Numbered from the stretch's first letter, positions 7,347 to 48,241 are shown. The stretch: DNA of 58,186 bases from Rhizomicrobium sp. (GCA_035255625.1 DATEZM010000448.1:1-58186), one strand, 5' to 3'. Notes: generated by a model from the sequence alone, not told the origin. Numbers and translations are program-made.

Positions 7347-7398
7347 GAAACCTGGAGCGGGCGAGGCGAATCGAACGCCCGACCCTAACCTTGGCAAG
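7347..7398. repeat. Island attachment site: 52-bp direct repeat containing the displaced 3' half of tRNA-Gly
   Basis: GAAACCTGGAGCGGGCGAGGCGAATCGAACGCCCGACCCTAACCTTGGCAAG is identical to 48161-48212. Confidence 0.97.
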
Positions 7399-29399: not shown

Positions 29400-29647
29400 C
29401 ATAATTCCTTGAGAGGGACCGTGAGATTCAACTCTAACGTCGCGCTCAGGAAATATTTTGAGGGTCAGGGTCTTTGGCCCGCGGGCGTGCGTTGTTTACA
29501 AAAATGAATGACGCTCCATCTCTCGTTTGTCGCTTTCGAATGTTTCCGTCAACTCGTTGGTGGCGACGAAGGGGGTCAAGCGCCCGGTTTTGTGATAGAA
29601 AAGGCTTCGTGAACCTCTGACGGTGTCAGCCGCGCCAAGCTCATCCG

Positions 29648-30259: not shown

Positions 30260-31116
30260 CGTCCTGTGATCGCCACCAGGTCGCGCGGATCAATTTCCAA
30301 GGCGGCATATTCGAGGTCGAAATAGGACGTCCGATCGACCAGCATTGGGACGATGTACCAAGGCTCAGTGCAGGTTATCACCAACCAGATTTCGTCGGGC
30401 CGATCAGCCGCCGCGAGCGCGAGCGGCACGACCACTTCCGCAACCGTGGCTTGATTGGTCAGTTGGATGTCGTCGTCCTCCAGGATAAGAACGGATCGCG
30501 CGCCGGCGACGCGTTTCCAGTGATTGAGCTTTGGAAACTTATCCCGGCATGCTTTGGCGAGTCGCTGTAGGCGGGCCTCGTCACGGCCCTCCTCAGGCAG
30601 AATGTGTACGACTTTGGCCGCTCCGGGATAGCCACCGGCATCGTGGCAATGAAGCGCAACCGGAAACGGCACGCCGGGAAGATCAACGTATTCGCTTCGA
30701 AACTGCCTTCCGATCGGCGCGATTGGCAGCGTCGGCGCCGTTGCAATGATCCAAGAAATCATCGCCTCCTGAATGCGTCGGATGTCCTTGTTCTTCAGTC
30801 CGCGCAACGCATGCACCGGAACGTGGAACTGAATGTACTCCCGCGGCCGAAGCGCGGCTGTGACAGCCTCCTCAATCGGCCCGAAGCCTCGGCGGGAGTC
30901 CGCCTCTAGCTCGATCTGTCCATCGAATGGCTCGATGCCGGTGTGTTCAAACGCAAAGAGTGCGCCGTTGAGCGTGCAGGTCAGCTCGATTGGTGCCGCC
31001 TTGTGGCCCGCCTTTTCGGGAAATTCCAGGTTCTCTCGTGCTGCTTTCTCGCGCCCCTCCAGGTGACGTAAGACAGCATCGCAGGCTTTGCCTTCATTGA
31101 ACCGCCGGCCGCTCAT
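30256..31116 (-). CDS. Hypothetical protein, possible restriction-endonuclease fold
   Basis: PIELTC...FAFEHT N-terminal motif; KFPKL...SVLILEDDD...PDEIWLV; ATGA overlap with the DUF1488-like gene. Confidence 0.7.
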   Translation of the reverse strand: MSGRRFNEGKACDAVLRHLEGREKAARENLEFPEKAGHKAAPIELTCTLNGALFAFEHTGIEPFDGQIELEADSRRGFGPIEEAVTAALRPREYIQFHVPVHALRGLKNKDIRRIQEAMISWIIATAPTLPIAPIGRQFRSEYVDLPGVPFPVALHCHDAGGYPGAAKVVHILPEEGRDEARLQRLAKACRDKFPKLNHWKRVAGARSVLILEDDDIQLTNQATVAEVVVPLALAAADRPDEIWLVITCTEPWYIVPMLVDRTSYFDLEYAALEIDPRDLVAITGR

Positions 31117-31469
31117 TGGCCAGTCATGGGATCGACCCAAAATCCATTCGCGATCTTGTGATGCGTGCCGTGCTTCCCATGCTCAGCGGCGAGCTCGTCA
31201 GTACGCACGACAACACCGCCGTTCTCGAGTTGGCCCCGCCTGAATTTTTCCCCAGCGATGATTTGGATAGGGCGGCGGCACCGCTCGTATATCGCGACGT
31301 AGTCGATCGGCTCCAGGATTGGGTCATCGACGCCGATCTCGACGAGATCCTCGAGTGCGGTTGTCGGCACCCAACATGGCTTCAGATCGCGATCGACGAA
31401 GGCGAGGAATTGCACCTGCCCCTTGTTGGCGTCCCAAAATCCGGCCTGCGAACTGAATACGACGTTCAT
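31113..31469 (-). CDS. DUF1488-like protein
   Basis: WDANKGQVQFLAFVD...CWVPTTALED...IYERCRRPIQIIAGEK pattern. Confidence 0.75.
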   Translation of the reverse strand: MNVVFSSQAGFWDANKGQVQFLAFVDRDLKPCWVPTTALEDLVEIGVDDPILEPIDYVAIYERCRRPIQIIAGEKFRRGQLENGGVVVRTDELAAEHGKHGTHHKIANGFWVDPMTGQ

Positions 31470-31565
31470 GGTAACAGCTTCTCTAAGGGTATTTTGGGTA
31501 GATAAGCTTGACGGGCAAAAACAACAAGGCTCGGTGTGTAAGATATTGCCCGCTTGGGCATCCTG

Positions 31566-32249
31566 TCAGGGCGTCTCCCAGATGAACTTGTCGTCGACGA
31601 CGCACACTCGCTCGAATGACTGCGCATCAGCGTCCCGCACAGCGCCGGCGACCAACTCGGTCATATCGAAGTCGATCAACAAGAAGCGATGCCCACGCGC
31701 ATAGATGACGAGCGTTGTACCTTTGCCCTCATGCGATCTCTTACGTTCGATCGCTTCAACGAGGCGCCGCCGGCAGGCCGTCAGATCATCAAGCGCGTCG
31801 CGGGCGTGCGGTTCAGAGATGATTGTGCCGTCAATCTTGCAGGTATTCCCGCCTCCAAAGGCGGGTCCCCCCTGGCGCAGCTGCTCCATACGCAGGTGGT
31901 GCAAATAGCTGCCGCTGCTTCCCGGACCTGTCTCCGACCAGGCCGGATCGGCAACGGTTACCTGGCACGCAACGCGCCGATTCTCGGCAAGAATTTCGAC
32001 GTCCGTCGAGTGACCCTCCGGCATGAGCCGGAAGGCATCGCGGTCGGCGTAGCACTTCTGATTCGCCATTAGCGCGATCGGGACGAGTTCTTCGTTCCAG
32101 GCTTTGGCCCAAGGAAGTCGGTTACTGCGCAACTCGCCGCTAAACTCCTGATCTCTTTGGCGGTAGGTCGCGAGCTCCAGCTCGAACGCGCGCAGCGCAC
32201 CTATTGAATAGTACTGATCGCGGACGAAGGGAAATTCAAGTTTGGTCAC
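31566..32249 (-). CDS. Hypothetical protein, possible restriction-endonuclease fold
   Basis: WNEELVP...STDVEI...ACQVT motif; GGGGAG RBS before GTG 32249. Confidence 0.7.
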   Translation of the reverse strand: MTKLEFPFVRDQYYSIGALRAFELELATYRQRDQEFSGELRSNRLPWAKAWNEELVPIALMANQKCYADRDAFRLMPEGHSTDVEILAENRRVACQVTVADPAWSETGPGSSGSYLHHLRMEQLRQGGPAFGGGNTCKIDGTIISEPHARDALDDLTACRRRLVEAIERKRSHEGKGTTLVIYARGHRFLLIDFDMTELVAGAVRDADAQSFERVCVVDDKFIWETP

Positions 32250-32536
32250 TGGCCGTCTCCCCGCTGATAACTGACTCAAGATGCAAGGCGAGCCGGGCAA
32301 ACGAGACGTCCCGATCGCGTTTTACTTTCGCCACCACTCGCCGTGCGACCAGCGCGGGATCGCCGGGCCTTCCAAATTAGGTTTTCCAGTATTCATCGGC
32401 AGGCTAGCCAGCTCTCCCAGGAAACCTTCAATTCGCTGCCCGCAGTTGCGTCGCAGATGGCGCCGACACGTTGGAATTGTTTGGCGGGCTTATATCGCTC
32501 AATGCGAGGCCATCTTTATCCACGGCTCGGCGCCTG

Positions 32537-34387
32537 TCACAAATTGAACAATTCGGCCCGTGACTGATCGAGCGTCTCGACGAGCAGCGCACGATCCAAG
32601 AAGACATTTCGAGCTTCGCAACTTGTTTCTGGAACCAACAAGCAGGCGTGACAGGCGGCTCCGTGCAGAGATCGCTCGTCGCCGGACATTGATGGATCGT
32701 GGTCGGCGCAAATCGGATCGTTTGAGCAAAGCCGCAAACGCTCCAACCCCGAGTTAATCAGCTCCGGGATTCGACGCGCCATTTCAACCAGGCCGCCTAG
32801 GGTGCCCTGCGCACCTGCGCCTGCGGTATAGATAAGGATACCGAAACGGTCCTGCCCGGTCGCGTTTGGTGACGCAATGGCATAGACGCGCTCTCTGAGC
32901 GAGCTAAAGGGATATCCGCTTTCAAGTGCTATCTGGTCCATGATCGCGTGGGCAAGCGTATGAAGCGCAACATACGCGATCCCAGGCCTTTCGGGATTGA
33001 TCTCGTACTTGTCCCGATAGCGATCCAAGCCTCTGTCAAGTAGCAGGCCCCTTGCGACGACTTCATTCCCTCCAAGCCATGATCGTATCGCCCCCGGATT
33101 GAGTTTGACAAATATTCCCTCGCCCTTCTGTTCCAATGCCGGCAGCCAGTCGGCTCCCTCGGACAATGGCGCGCCGTCCACAGCAAGGCGCACTTCTTCT
33201 AGCAATGCCTCGCTCATGGTTGCAGCAGGCTCCAGACGCGTAAAGCCATAGAGACATGTAACTGCGCGCAGTCGGTGCACTGCGACAACCGACTCTAAGA
33301 ATTCTTGTCCAAGTGCTGTCGTGCAATTCGCGAGCACAGCTCTGGGTAAAGTCTCGGCAAACAGCGGCTCATCATCGGCGTCGCGCCCTATTTGGTCTCG
33401 TCCACTGCCCAACAAATCGAACTCTTCAATCTTGGGATGGATAGATGCCGCTCGAACATCTTGCTCTCGCATTTGCTGAATACGCGCAAACACAGCCTCG
33501 TCGGAATAACCTTGGAGTACCGCTCCAATCTCGGGAACATTCCGGAGCACCCCAACGAATTCCTTTCCGGTGGCGGATTGCAAAGACGACCAGTGCTTTC
33601 GAATGGCGTCGCCCAACGCGTCGTCGTGGATAGGAAGAGAGATGACTGTGACGGTCTGTGCAAAGTATGTGTTGGTCGCAGCGCGCGACAGGAAGTGAAG
33701 ATTTTCCTCGCACCCCGGTTGGGGAGAATCCAGCCAGGGACGCTGGCCTCGACATCGTCCGAGGAACCCCGGCTTAAATGCATCAGCCAAGGAAAGCGCC
33801 GGTCTGCCGCACTGGCATCCGATTCTGATGTTCGCGGGGTCGGCGCTCGTCCCTTCTTCTTCGATCCACATCGGCTCGCTGCACGCGGCGCCGCGATGCA
33901 TGAGGCGACGCCAATCTATGTCTTGGAGATGACCGTTCTTGCAAGCTGCGACGAACCGAATTGGCGTTACATCGACTTTCTTGCCATCGTCCCGTTGATA
34001 CTTCGCACGGCCGCCGCTCGCTTCAAGGTCCGACCAGGGCACAAGTCGCCGCCTAGCCGTCGGACCGCCGGCGTTGTCCTCACATGTAAACCAGGTAGGG
34101 AACACGCGGACGGCGACGCCAGCAGGATCGTTATCGTCTCTCGTCTCTTGCGCGATTGGTGGGGTTCGAAGGCGAACCGGTTTGCCGGCCTCCCAGCGAC
34201 CGCCCTGCACAAGCTGCTGTTGCAGAAGCGCCGCTAATCTCGGTTCCTCCACAGTCTTGAATCTACCCTTCTGTGTGTCCCAATGCTCCAGTCCGGCAAC
34301 GATCACGGAGCGTGTGGGAAGGTCCATCATCGCGCCCGGACCGAAGGATGTCAGCAATTGGCTGACGCTTTGAGTGATGCGGGTCAT
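32537..34387 (-). CDS. drmB: DISARM DUF1998 protein DrmB
   Basis: SQLLTSFGPGAMMDLP start, RFVAACKNGHLQD, GEGIF, LHTLAHA, GTLGGL, CSNDPIC...GAACHAC..VPETSCE DUF1998 cysteine motif. Confidence 0.95.
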   Translation of the reverse strand: MTRITQSVSQLLTSFGPGAMMDLPTRSVIVAGLEHWDTQKGRFKTVEEPRLAALLQQQLVQGGRWEAGKPVRLRTPPIAQETRDDNDPAGVAVRVFPTWFTCEDNAGGPTARRRLVPWSDLEASGGRAKYQRDDGKKVDVTPIRFVAACKNGHLQDIDWRRLMHRGAACSEPMWIEEEGTSADPANIRIGCQCGRPALSLADAFKPGFLGRCRGQRPWLDSPQPGCEENLHFLSRAATNTYFAQTVTVISLPIHDDALGDAIRKHWSSLQSATGKEFVGVLRNVPEIGAVLQGYSDEAVFARIQQMREQDVRAASIHPKIEEFDLLGSGRDQIGRDADDEPLFAETLPRAVLANCTTALGQEFLESVVAVHRLRAVTCLYGFTRLEPAATMSEALLEEVRLAVDGAPLSEGADWLPALEQKGEGIFVKLNPGAIRSWLGGNEVVARGLLLDRGLDRYRDKYEINPERPGIAYVALHTLAHAIMDQIALESGYPFSSLRERVYAIASPNATGQDRFGILIYTAGAGAQGTLGGLVEMARRIPELINSGLERLRLCSNDPICADHDPSMSGDERSLHGAACHACLLVPETSCEARNVFLDRALLVETLDQSRAELFNL

Positions 34388-37300
34388 TCTACGTCCGTCG
34401 CTCCTCGAATTATATTTCCGAAGGGATCGCGAACTTTGAGGAAAGACCCATACTCGACATCCCGCATAGAGCGAGCCGCGACGAATTCCTTGTGCTCGAC
34501 GGACAAGTTGTCGGTGCTGGGATCGAGGGGAATTTGCAGAAGGCGGCGTTGAGCCGAGCCCTCGTCATAGCTGAAAGGGCTCCCCCCACTCGACTGCTGA
34601 GCGACCACGTCTTCCCATGCAGTAAACAGCTCCTCCGCTCGCTCTACAGCTCGGGTAGTACTGCGGGCGTTCACACCCATGCCGATGGCTCTGCTACGCA
34701 AAGCCTCGATGACCCGCGTCTTGACGCTTACGCTGCCGCCGAGTTCGCCCACCGAGCCCGATGGTGTCATTTCCGACTCGATGTGCCGTGCCGAGGCGAC
34801 AAGAAGGCCGGCAAGCGCTCGATCTAGGGCGCGCGAAGCAAAGGGTGTGATGCTTGAAGCTTCGACCGCACGGTAGAAAGATGAATGATACGCGCGAAAA
34901 TGCTCGTAGTGAGTTCGGTCCCGTGGCTTGTGCATGTTTAGTAATGTGATGACGAGCCCAGGCCTGTCACTGTCTCGACCAACACGGCTCGTTGCTTGGA
35001 TGTATTCAGCGGTGGTCTTGGGCTGGCCTTGCACCATCATCAGACCGAGTCTCGTAATGTCGAGACCTACCGAGATCATGTTTGTCGCCAATGCGACATC
35101 GACGCTTTGTTCAATTGCCTCGCCGCCAACGCCCTTAAAAGGCATTCCTAGATTTTCTTTAGCTTGGGCAACATCATCCGTTGAGACGCGCGAAGTCAGT
35201 TCCAGCGGAAGCCGCAGGGAGCGATTGGCGAAAGGAGTATCCGACGGGCTAATTCTTCGGCGCTCGGTCCCGTACTTTGCTACATGCTCGTGCACTTCGC
35301 CTTCTACAATGCGCCGCGCGCCGCCCAACTCCCGGAGGGCATTGAAGTACGCGAGAACCGTAAGGTAGGGGTCGGCTGGATCATGATGATTGCCTGCTGG
35401 TAACTCGCTCAAGGCTTCAGCGCCGGCGAGGACCGTCTGCAAGGTCCTCAGGAAAAGGAGTTTTGGACCGCGTCCCTGGCTCGCGATCCCAATATAGAGC
35501 CGCGCGGCCTCGTCCGAAGCAGAAACCGTCCTTGCAAAAAAGCTGTTTCGACGGTCAACGCCGGGCGGTGGAAATATCGCAGTCGCGCTACGGTCGAACA
35601 GGCGCTGGATTTGACCTTCCGCTCGACGAACTGTAGCGGTCGATGCAATGATCTTGGCGCGGATCCGCTGGCCGCTGCGTTGGCGTGAGCCCAAGAGGTC
35701 GATGGCTATTTCGTAGAGGCCGGCGACCGTCCCCAGCGGCCCCGAAATAAGGTGAAGCTCGTCCTGAATGATAAGGTCGGGTGGATCGAGTTCATGGCCG
35801 TTGTCGAGCGGTTGGCCTTGTCCCGGTTCGGCGGCGCCATAAAAGCCCGTCACCGGGTCGAACCGGTTTACATGACCGAAGAATGCCCCGCTTTGCCCAA
35901 CCCAAGGCAATGCGGCGAACTTGTCCACGGTGGCAATCAAAAAGGCGGGCAGCCTCCGGTATACCGGCTCGTCCACCACAAGAATCGGCAAGCTGCGATC
36001 CCGTGTGAAATCGCATTCGGCATTCTCGCATTTGATCGCCAGATTGTGGGCAGCCGTCCGATTAGGCTCGATGCGAAAGCTATCGGGTGTAAATGGCGTT
36101 CCACACCATGGGCAGGCCTTCAATGGCACCGGCGACTTGTTACGCTTCGGGTCTCTCTTGTAGCGGTTCAACCAGGTCGTGGCCGCTTCGGGGTCAGTCT
36201 TGCCCGTGCGAGGTTTCATCCTGTTGGGCGAGGCCCCGCTGCCAACCCAAAGGCCGATCTCGATAGGCCATGTTCCCAAAGCTTTGATCCCGCCTGCATC
36301 GCGCGTGCGGATCATTTCCAGCGCGCAAATCAAGCCAGCCGCACGAGACAACTGATCGAGTGTCAAAAGACGCAGCGTGTAGCGCATGATCACGCTGACA
36401 CCCGCGCCTAGAACGCCAGCAGCACCCAGCCTCCGCATGGAAATCGTATAGGCAGCCAGACCGAGATAGGCTTCTGTTTTTCCGCCGCCCGTCGGGAAGA
36501 ACAGGAGGTCGACGATTTCGCGTTCTGGGCTGAGCTTGTCCGTCAATCCGACAAGATTGAGAAGAATGAAGGCGAGCTGGAACGGCCGCCACGGATAGAC
36601 CTTCACTTCGTCCAGTTTCTTGCGTTCGATGCTGGCTAGGCGTCGCCGCGCAGCCATCGCCATGGCTTCGTTCATGATCGCGAATGCTTCTCGCGCCATG
36701 GAGTCAGTCTTAAGCAGATTGATGCCTCGTTGGATGCGGTCGTGCGCCTTGTCCACGTTGGACAGGAGGTTCAGCGCGGTTTCGCGTCTGCGAGGCGCCA
36801 ATCCGTTGAGAAACGACTCCTGGGACTTCCGCCACGCAGCGTATTGTGCAGGAAGACCCGCGAGCGCGCTCGCGAGATCATCCGCTCCCTTCTGGGCAAG
36901 CTCTGATAGAGCCTCCATTCCGAATTCGACATCCGGAATTGGGCAAGGCGATACTTTCTCTACTTCTTGCGTGGGCATCGGCTCTGTCCACACCTTTGTG
37001 ACCGGCAGCCGCTCGGCCTCCTCGGCGACGCGCTCGTCCCATCCACCGGATGTGTTGCGGCCGACGGCGTATTCGCAAACGTCACGGTAGTGAAGGTCGG
37101 CGAGCCTCAAGTCGGAGTCGTCGGACCTATAAGTTGAATGATCTTGCCTTGCGTGAAAGCCCGGCTTGCAAGCAAGTTCGATACGAGCCTGAAACGCGTA
37201 AGCTACGTCAGTGTAGGGTGCTCGCGCCCGTTTGCGCCGATTGACGAGAAACACAGTAACGACGCGCAGCTTTTCAACGATACCCTCCGGAGTGGTCTGT

Positions 37301-37911
37301 TCGAGCACGCGCTGATGCAGGGCGACCTCCAAGCCACCGCCCGGTCGCTGCGGAGCGGCACTTCCTGGCAATGCCTTGCCCGGGATGTTCTTGGTCACGT
37401 CAAGCGACAGCCTTGCCTCGCCTGGAATGCGAACCCAATGCAGCCCCGTCGGCCGTTCAGGCTTCTTCTCGCTGCCGGTCTCGGCTTCTGGAAGCAGCAG
37501 TACATCCGGGAGCGGCGGCTCCGTTTTGTAGTCACCCCAAGTCACACGCAGGTCAACGGTGCGCACCTCTTCTGGGAGCATGACGGTAAGGCCGAGAGAC
37601 GACGGTAGATAACGATCTTTTGGAGGTTGGTCCGGCATCTCCTGCTCGTCGGCATCGCTATCGACAGGCGACTCCAGTGTCTCACTGGCCAAGAGATCGT
37701 CTTGCGCTCGTTCGGCAATCTCTTCTTCATCGGGAGCAGCGGCGCCAACGCCATCGAACGCGGGCACGATGAACCCGCCGACGTACCAGCGCGAGGGCTT
37801 CTCGGAGAGAACTTCGCGAGCCAGATCGGCGTCGGCCTCGGGATGAGGGCCAAACAGGTCACGTCGCAGCAGATCGACGAGCCCGGAGCGAACTTGCAGG
37901 GACGTTGTCAC
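34384..37911 (-). CDS. drmA: DISARM SF2 helicase DrmA
   Basis: WRPFQLAF, FPTGGGKTEAYL, RYTLRLLT, IIQDELHLISGPLG, ATNMISVGLD, EYIQATSRVGR; GTG start overlaps the PIN stop (GTGA). Confidence 0.95.
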   Translation of the reverse strand: MTTSLQVRSGLVDLLRRDLFGPHPEADADLAREVLSEKPSRWYVGGFIVPAFDGVGAAAPDEEEIAERAQDDLLASETLESPVDSDADEQEMPDQPPKDRYLPSSLGLTVMLPEEVRTVDLRVTWGDYKTEPPLPDVLLLPEAETGSEKKPERPTGLHWVRIPGEARLSLDVTKNIPGKALPGSAAPQRPGGGLEVALHQRVLEQTTPEGIVEKLRVVTVFLVNRRKRARAPYTDVAYAFQARIELACKPGFHARQDHSTYRSDDSDLRLADLHYRDVCEYAVGRNTSGGWDERVAEEAERLPVTKVWTEPMPTQEVEKVSPCPIPDVEFGMEALSELAQKGADDLASALAGLPAQYAAWRKSQESFLNGLAPRRRETALNLLSNVDKAHDRIQRGINLLKTDSMAREAFAIMNEAMAMAARRRLASIERKKLDEVKVYPWRPFQLAFILLNLVGLTDKLSPEREIVDLLFFPTGGGKTEAYLGLAAYTISMRRLGAAGVLGAGVSVIMRYTLRLLTLDQLSRAAGLICALEMIRTRDAGGIKALGTWPIEIGLWVGSGASPNRMKPRTGKTDPEAATTWLNRYKRDPKRNKSPVPLKACPWCGTPFTPDSFRIEPNRTAAHNLAIKCENAECDFTRDRSLPILVVDEPVYRRLPAFLIATVDKFAALPWVGQSGAFFGHVNRFDPVTGFYGAAEPGQGQPLDNGHELDPPDLIIQDELHLISGPLGTVAGLYEIAIDLLGSRQRSGQRIRAKIIASTATVRRAEGQIQRLFDRSATAIFPPPGVDRRNSFFARTVSASDEAARLYIGIASQGRGPKLLFLRTLQTVLAGAEALSELPAGNHHDPADPYLTVLAYFNALRELGGARRIVEGEVHEHVAKYGTERRRISPSDTPFANRSLRLPLELTSRVSTDDVAQAKENLGMPFKGVGGEAIEQSVDVALATNMISVGLDITRLGLMMVQGQPKTTAEYIQATSRVGRDSDRPGLVITLLNMHKPRDRTHYEHFRAYHSSFYRAVEASSITPFASRALDRALAGLLVASARHIESEMTPSGSVGELGGSVSVKTRVIEALRSRAIGMGVNARSTTRAVERAEELFTAWEDVVAQQSSGGSPFSYDEGSAQRRLLQIPLDPSTDNLSVEHKEFVAARSMRDVEYGSFLKVRDPFGNIIRGATDVE

Positions 37912-38423
37912 GGCCGCTTTCCTTCCAACTGGTCCAACTGCGCCAACGCCATTTCGAGCCACTTCTGCGTGTAGTTCGCGCGCAGTGCGATCTTAGCTTT
38001 GGAGCCAACATCGGTGAGGAGACGCTCCAGCGAAACCAGCCGGTCTTTGAACCCCAAACGGATACCAATCCGAAGGCTCGCCTTGTCCGGTCCACAGAGA
38101 ATCCACGCATCGGTGCGAGTGAGAGCGTGAGCCCACAACATAAGCTCGCCGGGGTCGAGAAAACGGACCTGATCATCGGCAATAATTGCGCGCGCTTTCT
38201 CTGCGTCGCTGACGGCATGAACCGCCTTCAACGTACTCCGCAGCACTTGGGGATCGATACGATCCTCGGGTCGCCGGTTCTGCGCGCCGGTTTGGGTTTC
38301 GATCTCGCACATCTGGACCGTTTCAACCCTGTATGCGCCGACAAAAGCTTTCCAGCTTGAGGTGCGCCAGCATTCGATGATGACGTTCGTATCGACCAAA
38401 ATCGGTCCTTGATGGCGAGCCAT
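37908..38423 (-). CDS. PIN-domain (VapC/DUF3368-like) putative RNase toxin
   Basis: ILVDTNVIIE...CEIE...LDPGE...ILCGPDKA acidic PIN motifs. Confidence 0.8.
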   Translation of the reverse strand: MARHQGPILVDTNVIIECWRTSSWKAFVGAYRVETVQMCEIETQTGAQNRRPEDRIDPQVLRSTLKAVHAVSDAEKARAIIADDQVRFLDPGELMLWAHALTRTDAWILCGPDKASLRIGIRLGFKDRLVSLERLLTDVGSKAKIALRANYTQKWLEMALAQLDQLEGKRP

Positions 38424-38430
38424 TGGCGCC

Positions 38431-39540
38431 TCACAGATCGAAGGGCGCTTCGACGCCGTGAACCGCGAACAACCCGCCAAGCTCCTCCATCGGGAGTCCG
38501 AGCAAGTACGACACTCTCCGAACTGCGACGCGACCTTCATCGATAGCGCGGGCGATTACTTCGACGAATGCCTTTGAAAGGAGCGGCGGAAGGGCCTCCT
38601 TGACCGCTTTGGCGCGACCGTTGTTTCGCAGTCGATCTTCTGGAAGTCGGCCAGCAATGATCTTTCCGATCCGGCCCATTGCCACGAGGCGCCAACGTAA
38701 CGCAGACGCCGTTACCAAGAGCGCATCGGCAGCTCTATTGATTTGCAACACCAACGCCTCGCCATCAAGCGAGGGCCAATCGGCGAGATCATCCACGATC
38801 TTCGCAGGCATCAGCACAGCGGAAGCGAAATTGTCCGCAAGTTGTTCGACGCGATTTCTCTTATTTGGCGCAACATCTTCCACATGCTCCGGTGGCATCG
38901 CGTCCCAAGTGAGGATGTGGAAGAGTTCATGCGCGAGATCGAAGTGGCGCCGACCGACTACTTCACGCCGGTTTATCAGCACAACGTCGAGGTCCGGTAG
39001 ACGGCACGCTGCGCCCGAAACACCCTCGATGGGATCGACCATCAGCACCAAATGATGCAGATGCCGTTCCATAACTTCAGCGAGGCGACTTGCAGGAACA
39101 TTTCCCAGTTTGCATTCGACCACGAAGCGCTCGCCTGCTTCCGTTGCGGCCTCGAAATCGGATCGTTCGGTGAGCGTCAAAGCGGGCCGAAACAAAGGCC
39201 TTTCGCGTCCCACCTGTGGAGCAAGCTCGCGGAACGCTGCGATCAGGCGGCCTGCATCGACTTCATAGTCGTTCAGCGCCTTGCCGATGACGCCGTTCTG
39301 TCGCCAGGAAAACCGACCTTCGCCGGCGAGCAAGAAGGGATCGGTGAAGTATTCGAGTGGCGTACCGAACAGCTCCACCGCGCGGAGCAGCTCGTCGGCC
39401 GTTACTCGGCGCTCGCCTGTTTCGATGGCCGAGAGGGTCTGGCGATCCCTGAAGCCAAAGCCGCGCGCGACTTCGTCCTGTGAGAGATTTCCCTTCTCTC
39501 GCAATGCCTTAATCCGAATTCCAATGGTCGCAGCGGACAT
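38431..39540 (-). CDS. XRE HTH + ImmA/IrrE (COG2856/M78) metallopeptidase + C-terminal helical domain
   Basis: IGIRIKALRE..LSQDEVA...TLSAIETGERR HTH; RRHFDLAHELFH HExxH; EQLADNFASAVLMP; AAGGAGG RBS. Confidence 0.93.
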   Translation of the reverse strand: MSAATIGIRIKALREKGNLSQDEVARGFGFRDRQTLSAIETGERRVTADELLRAVELFGTPLEYFTDPFLLAGEGRFSWRQNGVIGKALNDYEVDAGRLIAAFRELAPQVGRERPLFRPALTLTERSDFEAATEAGERFVVECKLGNVPASRLAEVMERHLHHLVLMVDPIEGVSGAACRLPDLDVVLINRREVVGRRHFDLAHELFHILTWDAMPPEHVEDVAPNKRNRVEQLADNFASAVLMPAKIVDDLADWPSLDGEALVLQINRAADALLVTASALRWRLVAMGRIGKIIAGRLPEDRLRNNGRAKAVKEALPPLLSKAFVEVIARAIDEGRVAVRRVSYLLGLPMEELGGLFAVHGVEAPFDL

Positions 39541-39569
39541 GCAGAGCCTCCTTCGGGAGACTATCTACC

Positions 39570-39602
39570 CTTGCAAAATACGTTTTGCAAGAAATTCTTG
39601 CA
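39570..39602. promoter_or_regulatory. Overlapping palindromic operators upstream of the XRE-peptidase gene
   Basis: CTTGCAAAA-TACG-TTTTGCAAG (39570-39591) and TGCAAGAA-A-TTCTTGCA (39586-39602). Confidence 0.75.
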
Positions 39603-39643
39603 TTGTATCTACTTGGCATCGAGATTCAGCCGCGCTCATATTC

Positions 39644-40699
39644 TCAGCGAATCCCTGGAATTGCAGTCAGTCTGGCCGCCTTGCGCTCTTCGAATTGTAA
39701 CTGGAGGTGCCCATCGAGGGTCCACCAGGAGCTATCAGCCAGCGTTCGTCCCCGCACCAGCACGAACTCGCGGATTAGAGGCCTTACGAGTGCGTCAGTT
39801 ACTATAGCGATCCTGTAATGCGCTTTCGGATTCCGCTCGCCGTGATAGTGGCGCAAACAATTGAACTCGTTGACCGACAGCTCCGCAGCCACCTCGTTGC
39901 CGGAACGACCTTTGACTTCGACATGCAATATTTCGTCAGCGTGAGACGCAACCAGGTCGTAGCCCAGGTTGTCGTTCTCTACCGACTCCACGGTGTATCC
40001 TAAACCTTCCAAATGTAGGCCTACAGCTTTCACGGCAGCCACCTCGACTTGCCGGCGCTTCTCTACATCAGCCTGCCAACCTGAACGTCCCTTATTCCCC
40101 CTTTGGGCTTGCGCATTGACGGCCGATAACCTTCGCACATCGATAGCCCGCAAAATCTCGTTGAGCCGCATGAGCGCCTGTGATTTCGGCTTTGGATAGA
40201 AAACCTTTTGTTGTCCAGGCCAAGACTCGCCTCCGCGCGATTGACCTTGCGACACGAAGATCGGCCTAGCATCTGGCTGTAGCAGTATGCAGTTCTTCGT
40301 TTCTGCCACACAACGATAGCCAGCAATCTCTTTCCCAATCTTTCGACGGTGCACCAGCTTGCCGTGCGACTCTTGATCATTTCGATAGACCGTCGCGTCG
40401 CGCCAGATGCCGACCACAGCCCGCCCGCCTTGCTCCGGGTGTGGAGCGGTCCACACTACAGTCACGCCCTCCAAGACATCGGTCCGTCTTGGAACGGCGA
40501 AGTGATTTTCGAAATGCAGCGTACCCGTCGGTGGCACATAGCCATAGTAACGGCCACCTATATTGCGGAAGTTGTACATCTCATGGCCGTAGCCGTGCTC
40601 AGCGGCAAACTTGAATCCGCCGGCGCTCAAGCTGCCGCGATCACCATCGTATTGGGCCATCCACGCCGTATGAAAGACAATGATGTTAGCCATCATCAT
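39644..40699 (-). CDS. DUF3883 (PD-(D/E)XK) domain protein with uncharacterised N-terminal domain
   Basis: C-terminal VEVAAVKAV...GYTVESVENDNLGYDL...HVEVKG...LSVNE; overlaps the drmMI stop. Confidence 0.88.
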   Translation of the reverse strand: MMMANIIVFHTAWMAQYDGDRGSLSAGGFKFAAEHGYGHEMYNFRNIGGRYYGYVPPTGTLHFENHFAVPRRTDVLEGVTVVWTAPHPEQGGRAVVGIWRDATVYRNDQESHGKLVHRRKIGKEIAGYRCVAETKNCILLQPDARPIFVSQGQSRGGESWPGQQKVFYPKPKSQALMRLNEILRAIDVRRLSAVNAQAQRGNKGRSGWQADVEKRRQVEVAAVKAVGLHLEGLGYTVESVENDNLGYDLVASHADEILHVEVKGRSGNEVAAELSVNEFNCLRHYHGERNPKAHYRIAIVTDALVRPLIREFVLVRGRTLADSSWWTLDGHLQLQFEERKAARLTAIPGIR

Positions 40700-43600
40700 C
40701 CGCCAGGTCGGCTAATTCTTCATCTTCTCCGACATCGCGCAAAAGCTTGTCACCTGGCTTCACAAGACCGAGGCGGACTTCTTCCTCGTGGCGTTCGGCG
40801 TTGAGTTTCAGGAGGCGGGCGAGGACCTCGTCGCGGAGGTCGGAGGGCCAGAAGAAGCGGCCCTGATAGGTGTGGTCGTCTTCGGTTTCGGCGTTGAGGA
40901 AGCGCGGCTCCGCCCGCTCCGCCAGATCGTTCCAGCCATACGCGCGCAGCACGGCGCGATCCATCTCCGCATGCAGCTCCCGCAGCCGCACGATGTCAGG
41001 CGCGTGCTCGTTCACATCGTGGAACCGGTTGTAGGTTTTGGTCATGCCTTCGTTGCGCGCAATCATCAGCTCGGCGCGGTGGCTGTGATAGGCTCGCCCT
41101 GTGGTTCCCAGTTCGGGCGAAATCTCGAAGTCATTTGGTAGCGCAAAGGTTTGGAAGGAATCGGATGGAGTGTAGCTGAGATCGTCCTTCATTGTTGACG
41201 CGAAAAAGCGCGCCCAAATCTCGTGCGCACGAGACTGTATCAAGCAAAGGACAGCGTCCAATTCTGTCGCAACGACAACCAGTTTCTGATCGAACACTTG
41301 CTTCGAAGGAAGCCAGGACACTGCCAAGTGCGGTGATGTCTGCGTTATTGCGAGCACTTGCTGCAATTCTTCAATTGCCTTGTACAGTCCCGGTTGCCGA
41401 TCGCCAAATCGCCACCACCGCTTCCTTCTAGCAGGACGGTTATCTTGATCGCGCTGCGGTTTAACAAGTCTCTTTACAATGGAAAGTAGGTCGGGCCAGT
41501 CGGCAGCAACCCAGCCAGGATAGTCAGGCGGCACAATACCCTCTCTAGTGCAAACGAGACGTTCCTCTTCATTCATCGCAGTCCATCGCCGTCCCGATTG
41601 CTGGCGCTCTAGGGGTGCCGATGCAAAATCAATGATGTAGCGACGGTTCAAATGGCGTGGATCGTTGCTGAATTCCTCCCCGCCAATGTACGGAAAGATG
41701 CGATCCCCATTGCGTGGATTGGCGCGAACGAGGCTTTCCATATCTTTGAGCGAGAGGGACTTCCCCTTAGACGCCATCTCATCATCAAAGGTGAAGCCCG
41801 CACCGAGAATAACCGAACCTTTGAATGCGACCTTCAAATTTGCGAGGAGTCGGTTAGGGGAAGCGTCGAAGTCCCCGTCAACGAGATACGCCGAAATGCG
41901 GTTCACTGACCGATGGTCGACGATGAGCCGATTAGCCTCACCCTTCGCAACGTGGACAACACATACCACTACGGCTGCTTCACCAGGCCACCGTATACGA
42001 CGGTTGACCCGGAATATCGTCCCGCCGGTGGCTATGATGGCACGGAGCCCAGTTTCGCGCGTATCGCCTTGGCGAATAGTCTTCGTCGCGAGCAGGCCAA
42101 AAACGCCGTCTTGTCGCAGCAGATTAAAGGCCCGCCGAAAGAAATGCGAAACCACATCAGCATTTCCGTGGGCGTTCTGATGTAAGGTCTGCAGCCAGTC
42201 GATAAATCCCGTTCTATTGCCTTTGCTCGTTGTGACCATTCCACCAAATGGAGGATTACCCACGATCGCATCGAAGCCACCGTTGTCTCGTGCGAACACC
42301 TCCGGAAACTCCAGCTCCCAATGGAACGGGCTGACCGGATGCTCGCCGACCTTCAGCGTAGCGGCAATGGCCTCGATCTTGTCCCAGTGGGCGGGGCCGC
42401 CGCCGGCGAGGATGCTTTCGACTTCGGCGCGCCTTTTCTCGCGCTCCCTTGGTTTGTCCGATGAAAAGAACGCCGCAACGATGGCGTCGCCGTAGACGCG
42501 CGGCTGTTTCAGCCGGTCTTCGATTACCTTGTGACGCGCCTCCTGGATGGCGCGCTTCACGTCGTCGGATGCAAACTGGATTTCGCGGCGGCCGGCCACG
42601 ACCTCGTTCACGCGGTCGCGCACCAATCCGCTTAGCAACGGCAAGCCCTGTCTGGACATGTCCCAATTGACGGCCTGAATCTGCGCCCGGGTCAGACCTA
42701 CCAGGCTGTCGCCGCTCTTGATGGCGTGGTCGAGGAAGGTGAACTCGTGCTCGCGCGCCAGCGTTGCCAGCCAGAGCGACAGGCGCGCCAGGTCGACCGC
42801 CATCGGGTTCTTGTCCACGCCGTACAGGCAGCGCTGCGCCACCAGGCGGGAAGCATGAATGTCGTCGTCTTCGTCCGATGGGATAGCGGGTTTGAGTGCA
42901 GGATAACGCGCCCAAGCCTTTTGCAAGCGTTGGCCGAGCTGACGACTGGCCTCGACCAGGAAGGCGCCGGAGCCGCAGGCAGGATCGCAGACCTTGATCT
43001 CCAGCACCTGGTCGGGTGTTGCGGTCTCTCCGAGGCGCTCAAATACGGACTCCAACGCATGACGGACAATCGGTTCGGTCAGCGAACGTGGGGTGTAGTG
43101 GCTGCCGGAGCGGCGGCGCTCATCCGTCGGCTGAAGGACTGGTGCACCCTCCTGAGATATATGGCCGCCGGGCGAGCCGCGCTCATCTCTGATCTCCAGC
43201 AGCGCCGCTTTCAACTCGTCGATACCGTTGGCTTTCTTGATCGTCTCCAGCCGCTTGCCCGATGGCTCGACATCGACCTCCTTGAGCAATTTCTGACGAT
43301 TAGCACCTTTCGCCAACGCCAAAGCTTCGATTTCCACAAAGACAGGAAGTCTCTTCTTGCTCCGAACTGCCATCATTGGCCCAGGCGCACGTATTACGGT
43401 GAAGCCCATCACCGTTTCATAGACCGAGCCGATCTGCTCCACATCCAGCGAACGATAGGAGAGGCGCTCGCGCACCTTCTCGCCGGAGATCGCTTTCGCC
43501 TCTAGGGTCATCAGTCCTTCGAGGACGCGCAGGATGGCGCCGTCGCGGATGGGCAGAACCCTGGCTTCCTTGAGCGGCTGATCGGGATCGCGGCCCTCAA

Positions 43601-44711
43601 CGAAGGCGAATTCATTCGGATCGAACAGCTTCCCACCGCGCGGCGTGATCCAGCCCGAACGATGACCGCCATGCAACAGCCGGAACAGCGCCAGGAGCTG
43701 GCCCCAGCCGCCCTGGCGCTCATCCATGGTATCGGGGTTGAGCGCCCGATCTCGAACCAGCCGGACGTAGAGCCCTCGCACAGAATAGCTCTGCTCGTAA
43801 ATCTCCACGCCCTCGGTTGTGCGGCGGGTCGGCATCAACTCGCGATCTTCCGCATAGAGCAGGAAGACGAGCCGCATCAGCGTGGTGAGCAGCCCTTCGT
43901 AAAGATGATGCGGATTGGAAGCTACCAGGCGTTCGATGCGCTCAGGGTCCGCCGCGTGAAACGCTCTCAGCAGTTCATGCAGCGCGCCGAGCACCTGCTC
44001 TGCGAGTTCGGCGGAGACCTTGTTCTGCGCTTCGCGCGACCGCGCGAGCAGCTTCGGCAGACGGCGATTCTCCGGCTCGGTGAACAGCCGCGCATGGCCC
44101 AGGAGCAGCTTGAGACCGCCGAGCATGGGCCGACCGGCAACGGCAGCAAGACTACGGATCGGGAAGGACTGCCAACCCGAGGTTTCGCCGCGCGGGGCAT
44201 AGACTATGCGAATGTGATCGCGATCCACCAGCACGCCGATGGTCACGCCGATTTCACGCAGGAGGCGCTCAAGCTGTTGGTGCGGCGTGGCTTCCCACCC
44301 GGCAAGCGCGCCACGCTGGTCTGCGTCCTCATTCGGATGAAACTTCACCAGGATTTGGAAGCCGTCGGCCGCTCCCAGATCGCACACGGCCCAGTCCGGC
44401 GACAGCACGACCTCATGCTCGGGTATTGAGACGGTGAGCGTCGCGGGCAGCTCCGGTCCGCCCGGTACACCGGCGATGTACTTGGCTTCCCAACCTAAGA
44501 TCTTGGCGAAGAACGCCCAATGATCAGCAAGCGCCGAACCCTCTTCCGAGTCACGCAACAGCGCCGCCACAGCAGCATTGTCCACGGCCGATTGCGGCGG
44601 TGGAATCAGGCCCTCTTCCCGGATGATGTTTGGCCCGAGCACAAGTCCGACAGGCGGCGCGTGATAGAGCCACTCGGTCTGCGGATCGGCGGTTTCGATC
44701 AGGCCGGTCAT
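40686..44711 (-). CDS. drmMI: DISARM class I adenine methyltransferase DrmMI (Eco57I/type IIG-like)
   Basis: RLVFLLYAE, VEQIGSVYE, GSHYTP, motif I DPACGSGAFL, FHWELEFPEVF, motif IV NPPF; ATGA overlap with the drmD stop. Confidence 0.93.
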   Translation of the reverse strand: MTGLIETADPQTEWLYHAPPVGLVLGPNIIREEGLIPPPQSAVDNAAVAALLRDSEEGSALADHWAFFAKILGWEAKYIAGVPGGPELPATLTVSIPEHEVVLSPDWAVCDLGAADGFQILVKFHPNEDADQRGALAGWEATPHQQLERLLREIGVTIGVLVDRDHIRIVYAPRGETSGWQSFPIRSLAAVAGRPMLGGLKLLLGHARLFTEPENRRLPKLLARSREAQNKVSAELAEQVLGALHELLRAFHAADPERIERLVASNPHHLYEGLLTTLMRLVFLLYAEDRELMPTRRTTEGVEIYEQSYSVRGLYVRLVRDRALNPDTMDERQGGWGQLLALFRLLHGGHRSGWITPRGGKLFDPNEFAFVEGRDPDQPLKEARVLPIRDGAILRVLEGLMTLEAKAISGEKVRERLSYRSLDVEQIGSVYETVMGFTVIRAPGPMMAVRSKKRLPVFVEIEALALAKGANRQKLLKEVDVEPSGKRLETIKKANGIDELKAALLEIRDERGSPGGHISQEGAPVLQPTDERRRSGSHYTPRSLTEPIVRHALESVFERLGETATPDQVLEIKVCDPACGSGAFLVEASRQLGQRLQKAWARYPALKPAIPSDEDDDIHASRLVAQRCLYGVDKNPMAVDLARLSLWLATLAREHEFTFLDHAIKSGDSLVGLTRAQIQAVNWDMSRQGLPLLSGLVRDRVNEVVAGRREIQFASDDVKRAIQEARHKVIEDRLKQPRVYGDAIVAAFFSSDKPREREKRRAEVESILAGGGPAHWDKIEAIAATLKVGEHPVSPFHWELEFPEVFARDNGGFDAIVGNPPFGGMVTTSKGNRTGFIDWLQTLHQNAHGNADVVSHFFRRAFNLLRQDGVFGLLATKTIRQGDTRETGLRAIIATGGTIFRVNRRIRWPGEAAVVVCVVHVAKGEANRLIVDHRSVNRISAYLVDGDFDASPNRLLANLKVAFKGSVILGAGFTFDDEMASKGKSLSLKDMESLVRANPRNGDRIFPYIGGEEFSNDPRHLNRRYIIDFASAPLERQQSGRRWTAMNEEERLVCTREGIVPPDYPGWVAADWPDLLSIVKRLVKPQRDQDNRPARRKRWWRFGDRQPGLYKAIEELQQVLAITQTSPHLAVSWLPSKQVFDQKLVVVATELDAVLCLIQSRAHEIWARFFASTMKDDLSYTPSDSFQTFALPNDFEISPELGTTGRAYHSHRAELMIARNEGMTKTYNRFHDVNEHAPDIVRLRELHAEMDRAVLRAYGWNDLAERAEPRFLNAETEDDHTYQGRFFWPSDLRDEVLARLLKLNAERHEEEVRLGLVKPGDKLLRDVGEDEELADLADDDG

Positions 44712-47700
44712 GACTTCGGCCACAAATAGACGATGCCGACCGGTTCAAGCCGGCTGGCGCGGACTTCATAGGAGGCCGCGACGCGGGCGGGCTCGGTACG
44801 GAGTTCCGCCCCGATATCGGTGAGCCGTTGCGCCCAGCGACGGCGGTCCGCTTCTCGCTGCCGTCTCTCCGCCGGTTCAGTGAGGTCGAGTTCCAACTGA
44901 TCTGGCTGATCCTGCTCCTTGCGAATCTGTTCGCGCTGCGCGCGCAGCAGAGCTTCGAGACTTGCCGCCTCCTTCTTCGCGATGTCAGCGAGATCGGTAT
45001 TGGCTTTCGAGGACGCTGTTGCCGCGCGCTGTTCCAGGATCGGGCGCAGTTCAGAAATGTCGCGCTGTGCGCTCGATAGCAGCCGCTTGACTACGTCGGG
45101 TGCCGGCATGACGGCAGCCTTCAGTGCCTCATTCAGTTCGGCAAGCGTCGTTTCTTCGCCGGCGCGCCCATAGATACGCAGCGTGCGGGTTGCCGCATCC
45201 GTCCAACCTGCGGTGATCGGAATGATCTCTTCGTGCAGCCGAGCCGCGCCCGGACCGTAAAGCGCAAGCCGACCAATCAGCACGACGCGCGGTTGACCGC
45301 CTGAGGTTACAATTGCCGTCGCGCGATTAAGGCCGGATTGGAAACCCTGCGAAACGAAACGGGCGAGCAGTCGGCGAACCAGCCGGTGCTCCAGATGGAC
45401 CTGCACGACGCCATCGGCGTCTCGCCCATCCGCCAAGATCGGAGGCTCGAAGGTAATTGCGCGCACCGGATGTTCGGCGCGCCATTCGGCGAGCTTTTTA
45501 CGACCCGGCGGCCGGCCTTCGCGCAATTCATCGAAGAGCTGCGCCCAGGACGGGTCCTTGGTGAATGCCGGCAGCGTGGGATCGAGGCGAAATCCTCCCG
45601 CGATCTCCAGTTCGGGCGCCGGCACGAGAGGGACGTGGTCGCGGTCCAACGCGGTTCTCAGCACTGCCCTCAGATCAGCCGGGTCGATACCGACCTGGCG
45701 CCTGGAGTCATCCATTTCGCGTTTCAGGTGCTGGAGTTCGCGGTCGATGCGGGCGAGGCGGCGATCCTCGTCGTCGTCCATTTCCTTCTTGGCGTTGCGG
45801 GCGCGGACAGTGCCGTCTTCCTTGCCGATGCTGTCAGCAAGCGCGGTGGCTGAGGCGCGCGAGATTCCCCCGCTGGCCAGGCGATGATGGATGCTTTCGA
45901 GCAACACCTCTCCCGCCGAACCAAGCTGTTCGCGAATTGTCTCCGTCTTGCGAACGAGCGCATCGAGGACCTTGTCCTCTTCGCGTTGCGCATAGATGAA
46001 GTACCGGCACGTGACGGTTGGCGATGGTTGCAGCTTGCGATCAATGCGGCCATTACGCTGTTCTAGCCGCGACGGATTCCAAGGCAGATCAAAATGAATG
46101 AGGTCATGGCAGCGGGTCTGGAGGTTAATGCCTTCGCGCGCAGCGTCCGTGCAGATCAGAATGCGTAGCGGCTCCTTCTTCGGATCGGCGTTGAAGGCGC
46201 TCTTCACATCGTCACGACGATGTTGTCCGGTGATTCCTGTGAAGATCGCGATGCGCTCGTCGGCCTGATCCGAACCGGAAATTTCCTCCTTCAAACGCTT
46301 TTCGAGCCAGAGGCGCGTATCCTCCCACTCGGTGAAGATAAGTAATCGGCGCTGGTTCCAGTGCCCTGACTTGTCCAACAGGTTCTGCTTGATCCAGTTG
46401 ATCAACCAATTCACGCGCGCGTCGGACCTGCGCTCATAGCGCGTCGAGATTTCCAGCATCTTCTCGACGATGGCGATTGCCTCGTCAAAGCTGCGCAGGG
46501 CACCGGCGACAGCGCTAGTCGCACCGTCGGCCAGCTCATCGTCCTGGCTCTGCAAGAGCGCAAGCTGTTCCTCTTCGTCTCCGTGCGCGGAGACATCGGC
46601 CTCAGCGGCTCCCTTCGCGAGCAGAGCTGCCGCGTCACTACCTGCGTTTACCGACACGACGCCGTCTCGATGACGCTTCAGCGTGCTGAGATGACGCCGC
46701 AGTGTCCGCGCGAAAGCTGGAATCGAAGAGAAAAGACGCTGCTGCAAGCCGGAGAACAGGAACCGGGCTTGGCCCAGCGGCGTGCCCTCCAGTCCGTGCT
46801 CGCTCCAGGTGCGATAGTCCTGTAGCAGCGACGACAGAACGAGTTCCGGTGTATCCGTCTGAAGATTATCGAGGACGACGGGCTCAATCTCGCGCTTCGG
46901 GAAGCTAGAAACATTGAGCTTAAGGAGATCGCTCTTGAGGCGGCGCACCATGACCGCGTTGAGCGCCTCGGGTGTAACCGGCACGCCGCGCATAAACCGC
47001 TGCGGGTCAAGCAGTTCCAGCAGAGACGAAAAGCTGTTCGAGTGACCGTTGTGCGGCGTGGCTGACAAAAAGAGCCGATGCTCAAACCGGGCGGCTAAGC
47101 CCCGCACTGCGCGTGTAAACTGGCTGTCGGTCGCATAAGCGGTGCCACTAGCCGGTGCCGCGTGATGCGCCTCGTCAAGAATGAGCAGTGCACGCGGCCT
47201 GAATTCGCCGAGAGCGACCTTCAAGTCGCCGGCGTAGGTCTCGTCGCCAAGCAGGCTATGGGAGACAATAAACCGGGAGCCGGTACGCCAAGGGTTGGCG
47301 CTGAAACCTTGGCTGCGCCTGATCGCGGCGAGAAATTCGCGGTCGATGATCGTGAAGTTGAGACCGAACTTCTGTGCAAGCTCATCCTGCCATTGACCCG
47401 TCATCGCAGCTGGCGCGGACACGACCACGAAGTCCACACGCCTGCGCAGCAACATCTCGCGCAGTACCAGGCCCGCTTCAACCGTTTTGCCGAGGCCGAC
47501 ATCGTCGGCAATTAGCAGGTTCACACGCGGCAGTTTGAGTGCTTTTGAGAGCGGCAGAAGTTGATACGGCTCCAGGCGAATGCCGGCGCGAAAGGGCGCT
47601 TGGAATAGTTCTCGATCTGCGGCGGTCGCCGACCGCCACGTCACCGCGCGCAGGTGGGCGGCCAGAACGTCCGGATCGTCGCTACCCTCTCGCGCGATCT

Positions 47701-47908
47701 GCTTCCAAAGGTCCTCTTCGACGCGAACGACATCGATTTCAGAGTCCAGGAGAAGCCTCAGTTCCTCACCCTGCGCGTCGTCAGCGATACACGCCAAGTC
47801 AACGAATTTGAGATCAGTGCCATCGATCGAGTGGCCCTCGACCAGCCACTCGCGACTGCGGACGCGGATCAGTGAACCGGTTTCTGGAGAGTCGGAAGAA
47901 GGGGCCAT
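44708..47908 (-). CDS. drmD: DISARM SNF2-like helicase DrmD
   Basis: PRVNLLIADDVGLGKTVEAG, ILDEAHH, LSATPHNGH, TDAAREGINLQ, DLPWNPSRLEQRNGRIDR. Confidence 0.95.
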   Translation of the reverse strand: MAPSSDSPETGSLIRVRSREWLVEGHSIDGTDLKFVDLACIADDAQGEELRLLLDSEIDVVRVEEDLWKQIAREGSDDPDVLAAHLRAVTWRSATAADRELFQAPFRAGIRLEPYQLLPLSKALKLPRVNLLIADDVGLGKTVEAGLVLREMLLRRRVDFVVVSAPAAMTGQWQDELAQKFGLNFTIIDREFLAAIRRSQGFSANPWRTGSRFIVSHSLLGDETYAGDLKVALGEFRPRALLILDEAHHAAPASGTAYATDSQFTRAVRGLAARFEHRLFLSATPHNGHSNSFSSLLELLDPQRFMRGVPVTPEALNAVMVRRLKSDLLKLNVSSFPKREIEPVVLDNLQTDTPELVLSSLLQDYRTWSEHGLEGTPLGQARFLFSGLQQRLFSSIPAFARTLRRHLSTLKRHRDGVVSVNAGSDAAALLAKGAAEADVSAHGDEEEQLALLQSQDDELADGATSAVAGALRSFDEAIAIVEKMLEISTRYERRSDARVNWLINWIKQNLLDKSGHWNQRRLLIFTEWEDTRLWLEKRLKEEISGSDQADERIAIFTGITGQHRRDDVKSAFNADPKKEPLRILICTDAAREGINLQTRCHDLIHFDLPWNPSRLEQRNGRIDRKLQPSPTVTCRYFIYAQREEDKVLDALVRKTETIREQLGSAGEVLLESIHHRLASGGISRASATALADSIGKEDGTVRARNAKKEMDDDEDRRLARIDRELQHLKREMDDSRRQVGIDPADLRAVLRTALDRDHVPLVPAPELEIAGGFRLDPTLPAFTKDPSWAQLFDELREGRPPGRKKLAEWRAEHPVRAITFEPPILADGRDADGVVQVHLEHRLVRRLLARFVSQGFQSGLNRATAIVTSGGQPRVVLIGRLALYGPGAARLHEEIIPITAGWTDAATRTLRIYGRAGEETTLAELNEALKAAVMPAPDVVKRLLSSAQRDISELRPILEQRAATASSKANTDLADIAKKEAASLEALLRAQREQIRKEQDQPDQLELDLTEPAERRQREADRRRWAQRLTDIGAELRTEPARVAASYEVRASRLEPVGIVYLWPKS

Positions 47909-48160: not shown

Positions 48161-48212
48161 GAAACCTGGAGCGGGCGAGGCGAATCGAACGCCCGACCCT
48201 AACCTTGGCAAG
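48161..48212. repeat. Island attachment site: second copy of the 52-bp direct repeat
   Basis: Identical to 7347-7398; overlaps the 3' half of the intact tRNA. Confidence 0.97.
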
Positions 48213-48241
48213 GTTATGCTCTACCCCTGAGCTACGCCCGC
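48167..48241 (-). tRNA. tRNA-Gly(GCC)
   Basis: GCGGGCGTAGCTCAGGGGTAGAGCATAACCTTGCCAAGGTTAGGGTCGGGCGTTCGATTCGCCTCGCCCGCTCCA; 75 nt cloverleaf with encoded CCA. Confidence 0.97.

Follow-up and report, generated by a model that had tools for sequence, protein, structure and literature searches.

Class I DISARM, as described for Serratia sp. SCBI (10.1101/2021.12.28.474362, 10.1101/2021.12.26.474123), has the gene order drmD, drmMI, drmA, drmB. The same order was found on the minus strand of a 58,186-nt stretch of DNA from Rhizomicrobium sp. (GCA_035255625.1, DATEZM010000448.1:1-58186), here called the window. Unlike the described systems, the Rhizomicrobium locus has no drmC, its DrmA is shorter by ~130 N-terminal residues, and drmMI is parted from drmA by a variable slot and by a gene pair, xre/M78-pin, probably with an internal promoter. 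In published work drmC is reported to be dispensable and often missing from DISARM (Bravo et al., 10.1101/2021.12.26.474123; Aparicio-Maldonado et al., 10.1101/2021.12.28.474362), ARMADA lacks a DrmC-like gene, and DrmAB, which binds 5' single-stranded overhangs and senses methylation, is able to act when DrmC is absent (same two studies). By what route DISARM halts phage when DrmC is missing is treated by Bravo et al. as an open question.

The pair itself, an XRE helix-turn-helix (HTH)-HExxH fusion followed by a VapC-fold gene, has the layout of a predicted three-component toxin-antitoxin (TA) system, HTH-DUF955 (COG2856/ImmA)-PIN (Makarova 2009, PMC2701414; Matelska 2017, PMC5499597), and of RosmerTA (Ernits 2023, PMC10440598), for which RmrA was validated as an antitoxin in phage defence and the HTH-M78/PIN kind was noted in the Rosmer zone. 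It differs from the predicted systems in that its PIN family is not covered by a Pfam model and, among Alphaproteobacteria, mostly has a fixed place within DISARM. The validated RmrT toxins, as far as they are described in the available text, are not PIN proteins, and the PIN open reading frame (ORF) matched no RmrT model of RosmerTA as represented in PADLOC 2.0. Class I DISARM of Nocardia wallacei is likewise linked to a PIN-like gene and a fused HTH-peptidase gene (Lau et al., 10.1101/2022.04.27.489752), which are described as lying upstream of the locus, before drmD and on the opposite strand, with drmC present; in Rhizomicrobium the pair is inside the locus, co-oriented and coupled to drmA, with drmC absent, the two pairs being compared by description. 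CapH and CapP are separate HTH and peptidase-GAF genes located upstream and divergently, in contrast to the single fused, internal and co-oriented gene found here. Shield ShdA (PMC10270631) is likewise an accessory defence gene inside a DISARM-like operon, but it is an RmuC protein and was described from Pseudomonas only. Each ingredient thus has precedent: DISARM without drmC, HTH-M78/PIN pairs, a different DISARM-associated pair, and accessory genes inside DISARM. No description of an xre/M78-pin-drmA-drmB unit fixed inside the locus, together with its motif and the adjacent hotspot, was found in the literature searched, although the original DISARM paper (Ofir 2018) and supplements lay outside the searched text and may list loci without drmC or with xre-pin. 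We class the locus as a class I DISARM variant that includes a defence gene hotspot.

Gene content and the absence of drmC

Seven ORFs, all present, are arranged on the minus strand in the order drmD-drmMI-DUF3883-xre/M78-pin-drmA-drmB:

44708..47908, minus strand, drmD, SNF2-like helicase (NF038317, 1004.7 bits against a cut-off of 610; PADLOC DrmD)
40686..44723, minus strand, drmMI, N6-adenine methyltransferase (PADLOC DrmMI, 1194 bits)
39644..40699, minus strand, DUF3883 protein of 351 aa, a passenger of the slot (PF13020, DUF3883/NOV_C, at residues 219-303)
39570..39601, minus strand, palindromic motif GCAAGA-N3-TCTTGCA-N11-GCAAG, 5' of xre
38431..39540, minus strand, xre/M78, 369 aa, XRE HTH fused to an ImmA/IrrE-type zinc peptidase, RmrA-like (HTH_3 and Peptidase_M78)
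37908..38423, minus strand, pin, 171 aa, VapC/PIN fold (from the fold and conserved residues)
34384..37911, minus strand, drmA helicase, short form (NF038325, 1082.7 bits against a cut-off of 950)
32537..34387, minus strand, drmB, DUF1998/MZB (NF038324, 508.6 bits against a cut-off of 240)

DrmD, DrmA and DrmB were called by the NCBIfam cut-offs and DrmMI by its PADLOC score. The locus has the class I hallmarks of adjacent drmA and drmB with drmD and drmMI upstream. The drmD gene starts at ATG 47908, with a second open start, GTG 47929, upstream. DrmMI contains the motifs DPACGSGAF and GNPPF, and its N-terminal domain is nuclease-like without a conserved PD-(D/E)xK. Junctions read from the DNA comprised an overlap of drmMI with the DUF3883 gene, a gap of 7 nt between xre and pin and a GTGA overlap of pin with drmA; the drmD/drmMI and drmA/drmB overlaps follow from the ORF coordinates. 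The gene order and start/stop overlaps claimed in an earlier note on this DNA were therefore borne out. Its picture of a single operon held for these tight junctions but not for an unbroken unit, since a 103-nt gap containing the palindromic motif separates the DUF3883 gene from xre.

The same note had reported that no HKD/PLD gene follows drmB, and indeed neither such a gene nor drmC was detected 3' of drmB in Pfam, PADLOC and NCBIfam scans of the window. In the organism's own genome, which is 84.7% complete, NF038319 (DrmC) gave no match and PF13091 a single match below its cut-off, on another contig. Because drmC is lacking, the locus was filed as a variant rather than a canonical member of class I. 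Among the loci compared, drmC was found in six from Alphaproteobacteria, all with a longer DrmA, and on two cyanobacterial plasmids. The ~130 N-terminal residues absent from DrmA are present in the drmC-bearing alphaproteobacterial proteins; as class 1 DrmA is described as carrying an EVE-like reader (Bell et al.), we infer that the missing stretch is this domain. The idea that DrmMI acts as a self-sufficient type IIG nuclease, which would explain the loss of drmC, was rejected, as PD-(D/E)xK was not conserved in 43 aligned N termini, those from drmC-bearing loci included.

The xre-pin pair and its position before drmA

The PIN ORF had no match in Pfam, PADLOC or NCBIfam and was identified by its fold. 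The structure model (predicted local distance difference test, 92) matched VapC/PIN structures (Foldseek, best E 3e-4), and fold comparison with VIA gave a best Z of 10.9, with a root mean square deviation of 3.4 over 132 residues and top rows that were nearly all PIN. Residues D11, E42, D90, E93 and D113 were invariant in 114 close homologs; among 84 distant homologs D11, E42 and E93 were invariant and D113 nearly so. The family, with 1460 homologs (723 representatives after 50% clustering), has no Pfam model, PF01850 being weakly matched by the best 6 of 84 members. With a PIN fold, an acidic active site and a gene adjoining xre, the protein has the features of a PIN-family toxin and is predicted to be an RNase. 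Its partner combines an XRE HTH with a zincin peptidase, in which the HExxH motif and third ligand are intact (H204, E205, H208 and E232, kept in all 93 aligned homologs). The partner matched PADLOC RmrA (E 2e-16) and capP (E 2e-14) weakly, the RmrA matches scoring only 20-58 bits, and a Pfam scan found no GAF family in it.

The order of the genes around pin was conserved. A metagenome scan with the PIN family retained 80 of 317 confirmed loci, numbered with an L prefix like the others below. In 72 of the 80, xre lies 5' of pin, and the remaining 8 start ≤180 bp from a contig end; drmA follows pin directly in 71, and 8 end within ~200 bp of pin. One locus, L059, is a true exception to the pin-then-drmA order, while L071 holds only a 195-bp piece of drmA. 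So that loci would not be selected through PIN, DrmB served as the query in three draws of 401 genomes each, of which 10, 18 and 18 were positive; 40 regions were analysed, three fragment matches and L173 being left out. In the Rhizobiales draw the PIN profile matched 8 genomes, one of them the seed genome. All 8 were among the 18 DrmB-positive genomes, and in all 8 pin was directly before drmA. With drmC in 2 of the 18, pair-bearing loci outnumber canonical drmC-bearing ones in this draw.

When clade loci were collected by DrmA and DrmB queries, the pair was present between drmMI and drmA in 15/20 and drmC in 0/20; related loci are not independent, so that such pair counts are descriptions and not tests. 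The 20 loci comprised 8 from the draws, 6 distinct plasmids (9 opened of 43 matches) and 6 intact loci from a set of 18, with the fragmented L114, L115, L009, L006-L007 and L010-L018 excluded. A quick IQ-TREE of 76 DrmB proteins, with SH-aLRT support only and midpoint rooting, placed the window inside a 44-row clade (SH-aLRT 97) in which 38 rows have pin, 5 do not and 1 could not be assigned. The five (L001, L123, L147, L148 and L151) stand on separate branches. No DrmC match was obtained in the clade, where the downstream sequence extends for 900 bp or more in 37 of 44 rows. The pair is, on this tree, typical of the drmC-less clade, and the simplest reading would be that drmC was lost, xre-pin was then captured once and scattered losses followed. 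One of the five, L147 (2432-14878), lies within a type I-E CRISPR-Cas locus on a Sphingomonas plasmid, with cas3 on one side and cse1 on the other.

The distribution bears on whether PIN replaces DrmC as effector, with activated DrmAB directly triggering XRE/M78 cleavage or PIN release in a sensor-coupled abortive system. Besides PIN, no nuclease-fold protein is conserved in the clade, which has neither drmC nor an intact PD-(D/E)xK in DrmMI; drmC and the pair never occurred together in the loci examined; and recruitment of other nucleases by DrmAB has been proposed (Bravo et al.). Loci lacking both are common, however: besides the five clade members there are the sister pair L111/L112 and also L108 and L149. 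The loss of drmC therefore appears independent of the gain of PIN, and the pair is not a strict replacement for DrmC. Moreover, DrmC is described as dispensable in the tested systems, and the Nocardia system of Lau et al. as combining drmC with a vapC-like gene and a CapH-CapP fusion. Replacement of DrmC by PIN is accordingly considered rather improbable. The subtype supplies naturally drmC-less systems, some with and some without a single conserved nuclease-fold partner, in which both the effector question and the regulation of DISARM can be tested directly.

Outside DISARM, the pair turned up on plasmids of Burkholderia and Rhizobium (L106, L180), in a viral contig where methylase and terminase-like genes flank it (L159) and, as L171, in a further class of the phylum. 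Of five plasmid PIN matches, three were in DISARM and two stood alone. These stand-alone copies point to a captured, mobile TA-like cassette, a two-gene unit with its own operator-like motif which, judged by sequence, is of the HTH-COG2856 plus PIN kind. In the decayed Mesorhizobium loci L006 and L018, xre is intact beside broken pin and drmA genes, the pattern expected of an antitoxin. Remnants of this form, with drmB gone as well, were seen in L006, L007, L010 and L018.

The palindromic motif was seen 5' of xre throughout the loci printed out. At ≤2 mismatches it was matched in 77/173 loci, in two of these (L112 and L146) not at xre, and once in the organism's own genome. The full three-part motif occurred in 0/100 shuffles; the short inner palindrome alone occurred in 42/100 and is not above chance in the window. 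The inner palindrome was kept in stand-alone xre-pin copies, and the motif had no match in the five clade loci without the pair. Within the motif of homologs, TTGCA(A/T) is followed at 17 nt by a TAT-rich hexamer, so that it is likely to be a promoter overlapped by autoregulatory operators and to set a methylase unit apart from a second unit, xre-pin-drmA-drmB. Because pin overlaps or abuts drmA, a promoter at the motif would also drive drmA-drmB.

The pair could alternatively be an addiction module that stabilises a mobile island, inserted once before drmA and inherited there, that takes no part in controlling DISARM or in killing. One insertion followed by descent accounts for the fixed position, the pair stands alone on plasmids, in a prophage and in a defence island, five clade members do without it, and another TA type, MqsA-SecB, occupies the same interval of L149. 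Against this, cargo varies 5' of xre but almost never enters between pin and drmA (largest gap ~500 bp, in L084), and the overlap or near-contact of these two genes is kept at 50-55% protein identity. No terminator-like site was listed between them on the coding strand, so a cassette promoter would read into drmA. Addiction alone is regarded as unlikely.

The slot between drmMI and xre

In 51 other loci the interval from drmMI to xre ranged from ~120 bp to 4 kb and held very varied genes. The DUF3883 gene was found in one of these, L119, at 77% identity, and was therefore taken as a passenger; as a fixed part of the system it was ruled out. The earlier note had read the three inserted genes as parts of a composite system, with a PD-(D/E)XK nuclease and an abortive PIN toxin as alternative effectors; the DUF3883 protein would then be a constant effector of it. 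This account, to which the overlap with the drmMI stop codon and the shared slot of L119 lend some support, is highly improbable: the gene is missing from 50/51 other visible slots, the slot is filled by many unrelated genes, and 5/5 DUF3883 homologs on viral contigs had no drm gene within the flanks examined. The note's further contention that the insertion was not random stands for xre/M78-pin, conserved directly before drmA across the drmC-less clade, and falls for DUF3883, seen in one of the 51 other slots.

Other occupants included dual-OB plus DUF488 trios, an HD-domain pair, NucS-like/DUF4268 and DUF2188 proteins and an annotated PLD-family protein, and several recurring families had no Pfam match. 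Three of the recurring families, grouped by shared N-terminal sequence only, were one of ~218 aa (L001, L003-L005, L008, L036), one of ~460-470 aa with an N-terminal Cys motif (L050, L061, L065, L067, L085) and one of ~270-330 aa (L051, L062, L067, L119). The recurring unannotated families are candidate new defence genes. Judged by its contents the slot is a hotspot for swappable defence genes, and being well bounded it offers a ready list of such candidates. The annotated phospholipase D family protein lies in the slot of a Methylocystis locus (L105:8246-9379) and matched no DrmC model. The MqsA-SecB module, of the TAC type, was found at L149:7970-9447 in the drmMI-drmA interval of a drmC-less Thiodictyon locus, as a second TA type there.

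The C-terminal domain of the DUF3883 protein resembles Hjc (Z 9.0) with an intact PD-(D/E)XK catalytic domain, E217, D246, E259 and K261 (numbered from ATG 40693) being invariant in 67 homologs. Its N-terminal domain gave weak fold matches (Z 5.1-6.8) to EVE 1wmm (Z 6.8), VcaM4I (Z 5.9), YTH and McrB-N; several of the EVE/YTH rows span residues 2-190, and the Atlas clusters among the matches are unnamed. The N-terminal domain also occurs in an annotated HNH endonuclease, H59. PUA-superfamily/DUF3883 enzymes such as YenY4I and McaZI are modification-dependent restriction enzymes with the same DUF3883 PD-(D/E)XK domain behind a putative reader (Lutz 2019, PMC6765204). The reader of the Rhizomicrobium protein differs in lacking a Pfam family, with only the weak EVE/YTH fold match, and DUF3427 is absent. 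On these models the slot protein is a putative modified-base reader joined to a nuclease, and likely a modification-dependent restriction enzyme.

A possible mechanism and the surrounding island

The reading towards which we lean, with a little more confidence than doubt, is that drmD, drmMI and the slot form a marking unit and xre-pin-drmA-drmB an autorepressed, inducible unit in which PIN is an abortive or addiction layer. DrmMI, expressed from the upstream unit, would mark host DNA. XRE/M78 would bind the palindromes and repress its own promoter until a signal of damage or infection, possibly single-stranded DNA (ssDNA) by analogy with CapP and IrrE, lifted the repression and freed PIN. CapP/CapH are reported to induce immune operons via ssDNA (Lau et al.), and the CapP/IrrE peptidases to cleave HTH repressors when bound to it. 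DrmAB would then load on unmethylated phage DNA and block replication; should the block fail, PIN would halt translation as an abortive or addiction back-up. The DUF3883 nuclease in the slot may cover phages with modified DNA.

Several observations weigh against this scheme. PIN queries supplied 23/38 of the PIN-bearing tree rows, and related loci are not independent. Five clade members carry drmA without the pair, drmMI abutting drmA in L123, L147 and L148, which makes the pair dispensable. CapP and IrrE are described as holding ssDNA in a groove with a GAF domain, for which XRE/M78 gave no match. In L059 xre is apparently frameshifted and pin whole, the opposite of the antitoxin pattern, although an assembly error is possible in this metagenome. 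Finally, a generic sigma-70 scan of the window did not call the motif as a promoter.

A more elaborate scheme, a two-tier, sensor-coupled subtype widespread in Alphaproteobacteria, is offered only speculatively. DrmAB, without DrmC and the N-terminal reader, would produce or expose ssDNA on phage genomes and so activate XRE/M78; pin-drmA-drmB would be derepressed by positive feedback and PIN released as a killer, while the slot would contribute exchangeable readers and nucleases, among them many defence genes that have yet to be described.

The locus sits at one end of a 40.8-kb integrative tRNA-Gly island (window 7347-48212) bounded by two identical repeats:

48161..48212, 52-bp repeat in the 3' part of tRNA-Gly (48167-48241, minus strand), island end
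7347..7398, identical 52-bp copy, other island end, adjoining a tyrosine integrase (7527-8867) and a VapE-like primase/helicase (9356-11815)

Cargo of the island is also catabolic and includes a TonB receptor, acyl-CoA dehydrogenases, enoyl-CoA hydratases, an amidohydrolase and an MFS protein. More defence-like cargo lies 3' of drmB (window 25660-32300). It contains a TIR protein (26676-27608) matching PADLOC ThsB at 177 bits, with no ThsA among the scanned ORFs, a DUF2188 match, two similar-looking adjoining ORFs of ~210 aa (28106-29364) and three ORFs of 203-294 aa without a family.

A separate DrmB clade (L125-L127, L136-L140, L146) was common in the Rhizobiales and Rhodobacteraceae draws. 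Its loci, for example L125:8899-17991, encode a UvrD-like helicase, DrmA, DrmB and a NERD/UvrD protein, with no methylase or drmC match nearby, and may represent an undescribed DISARM-like class.

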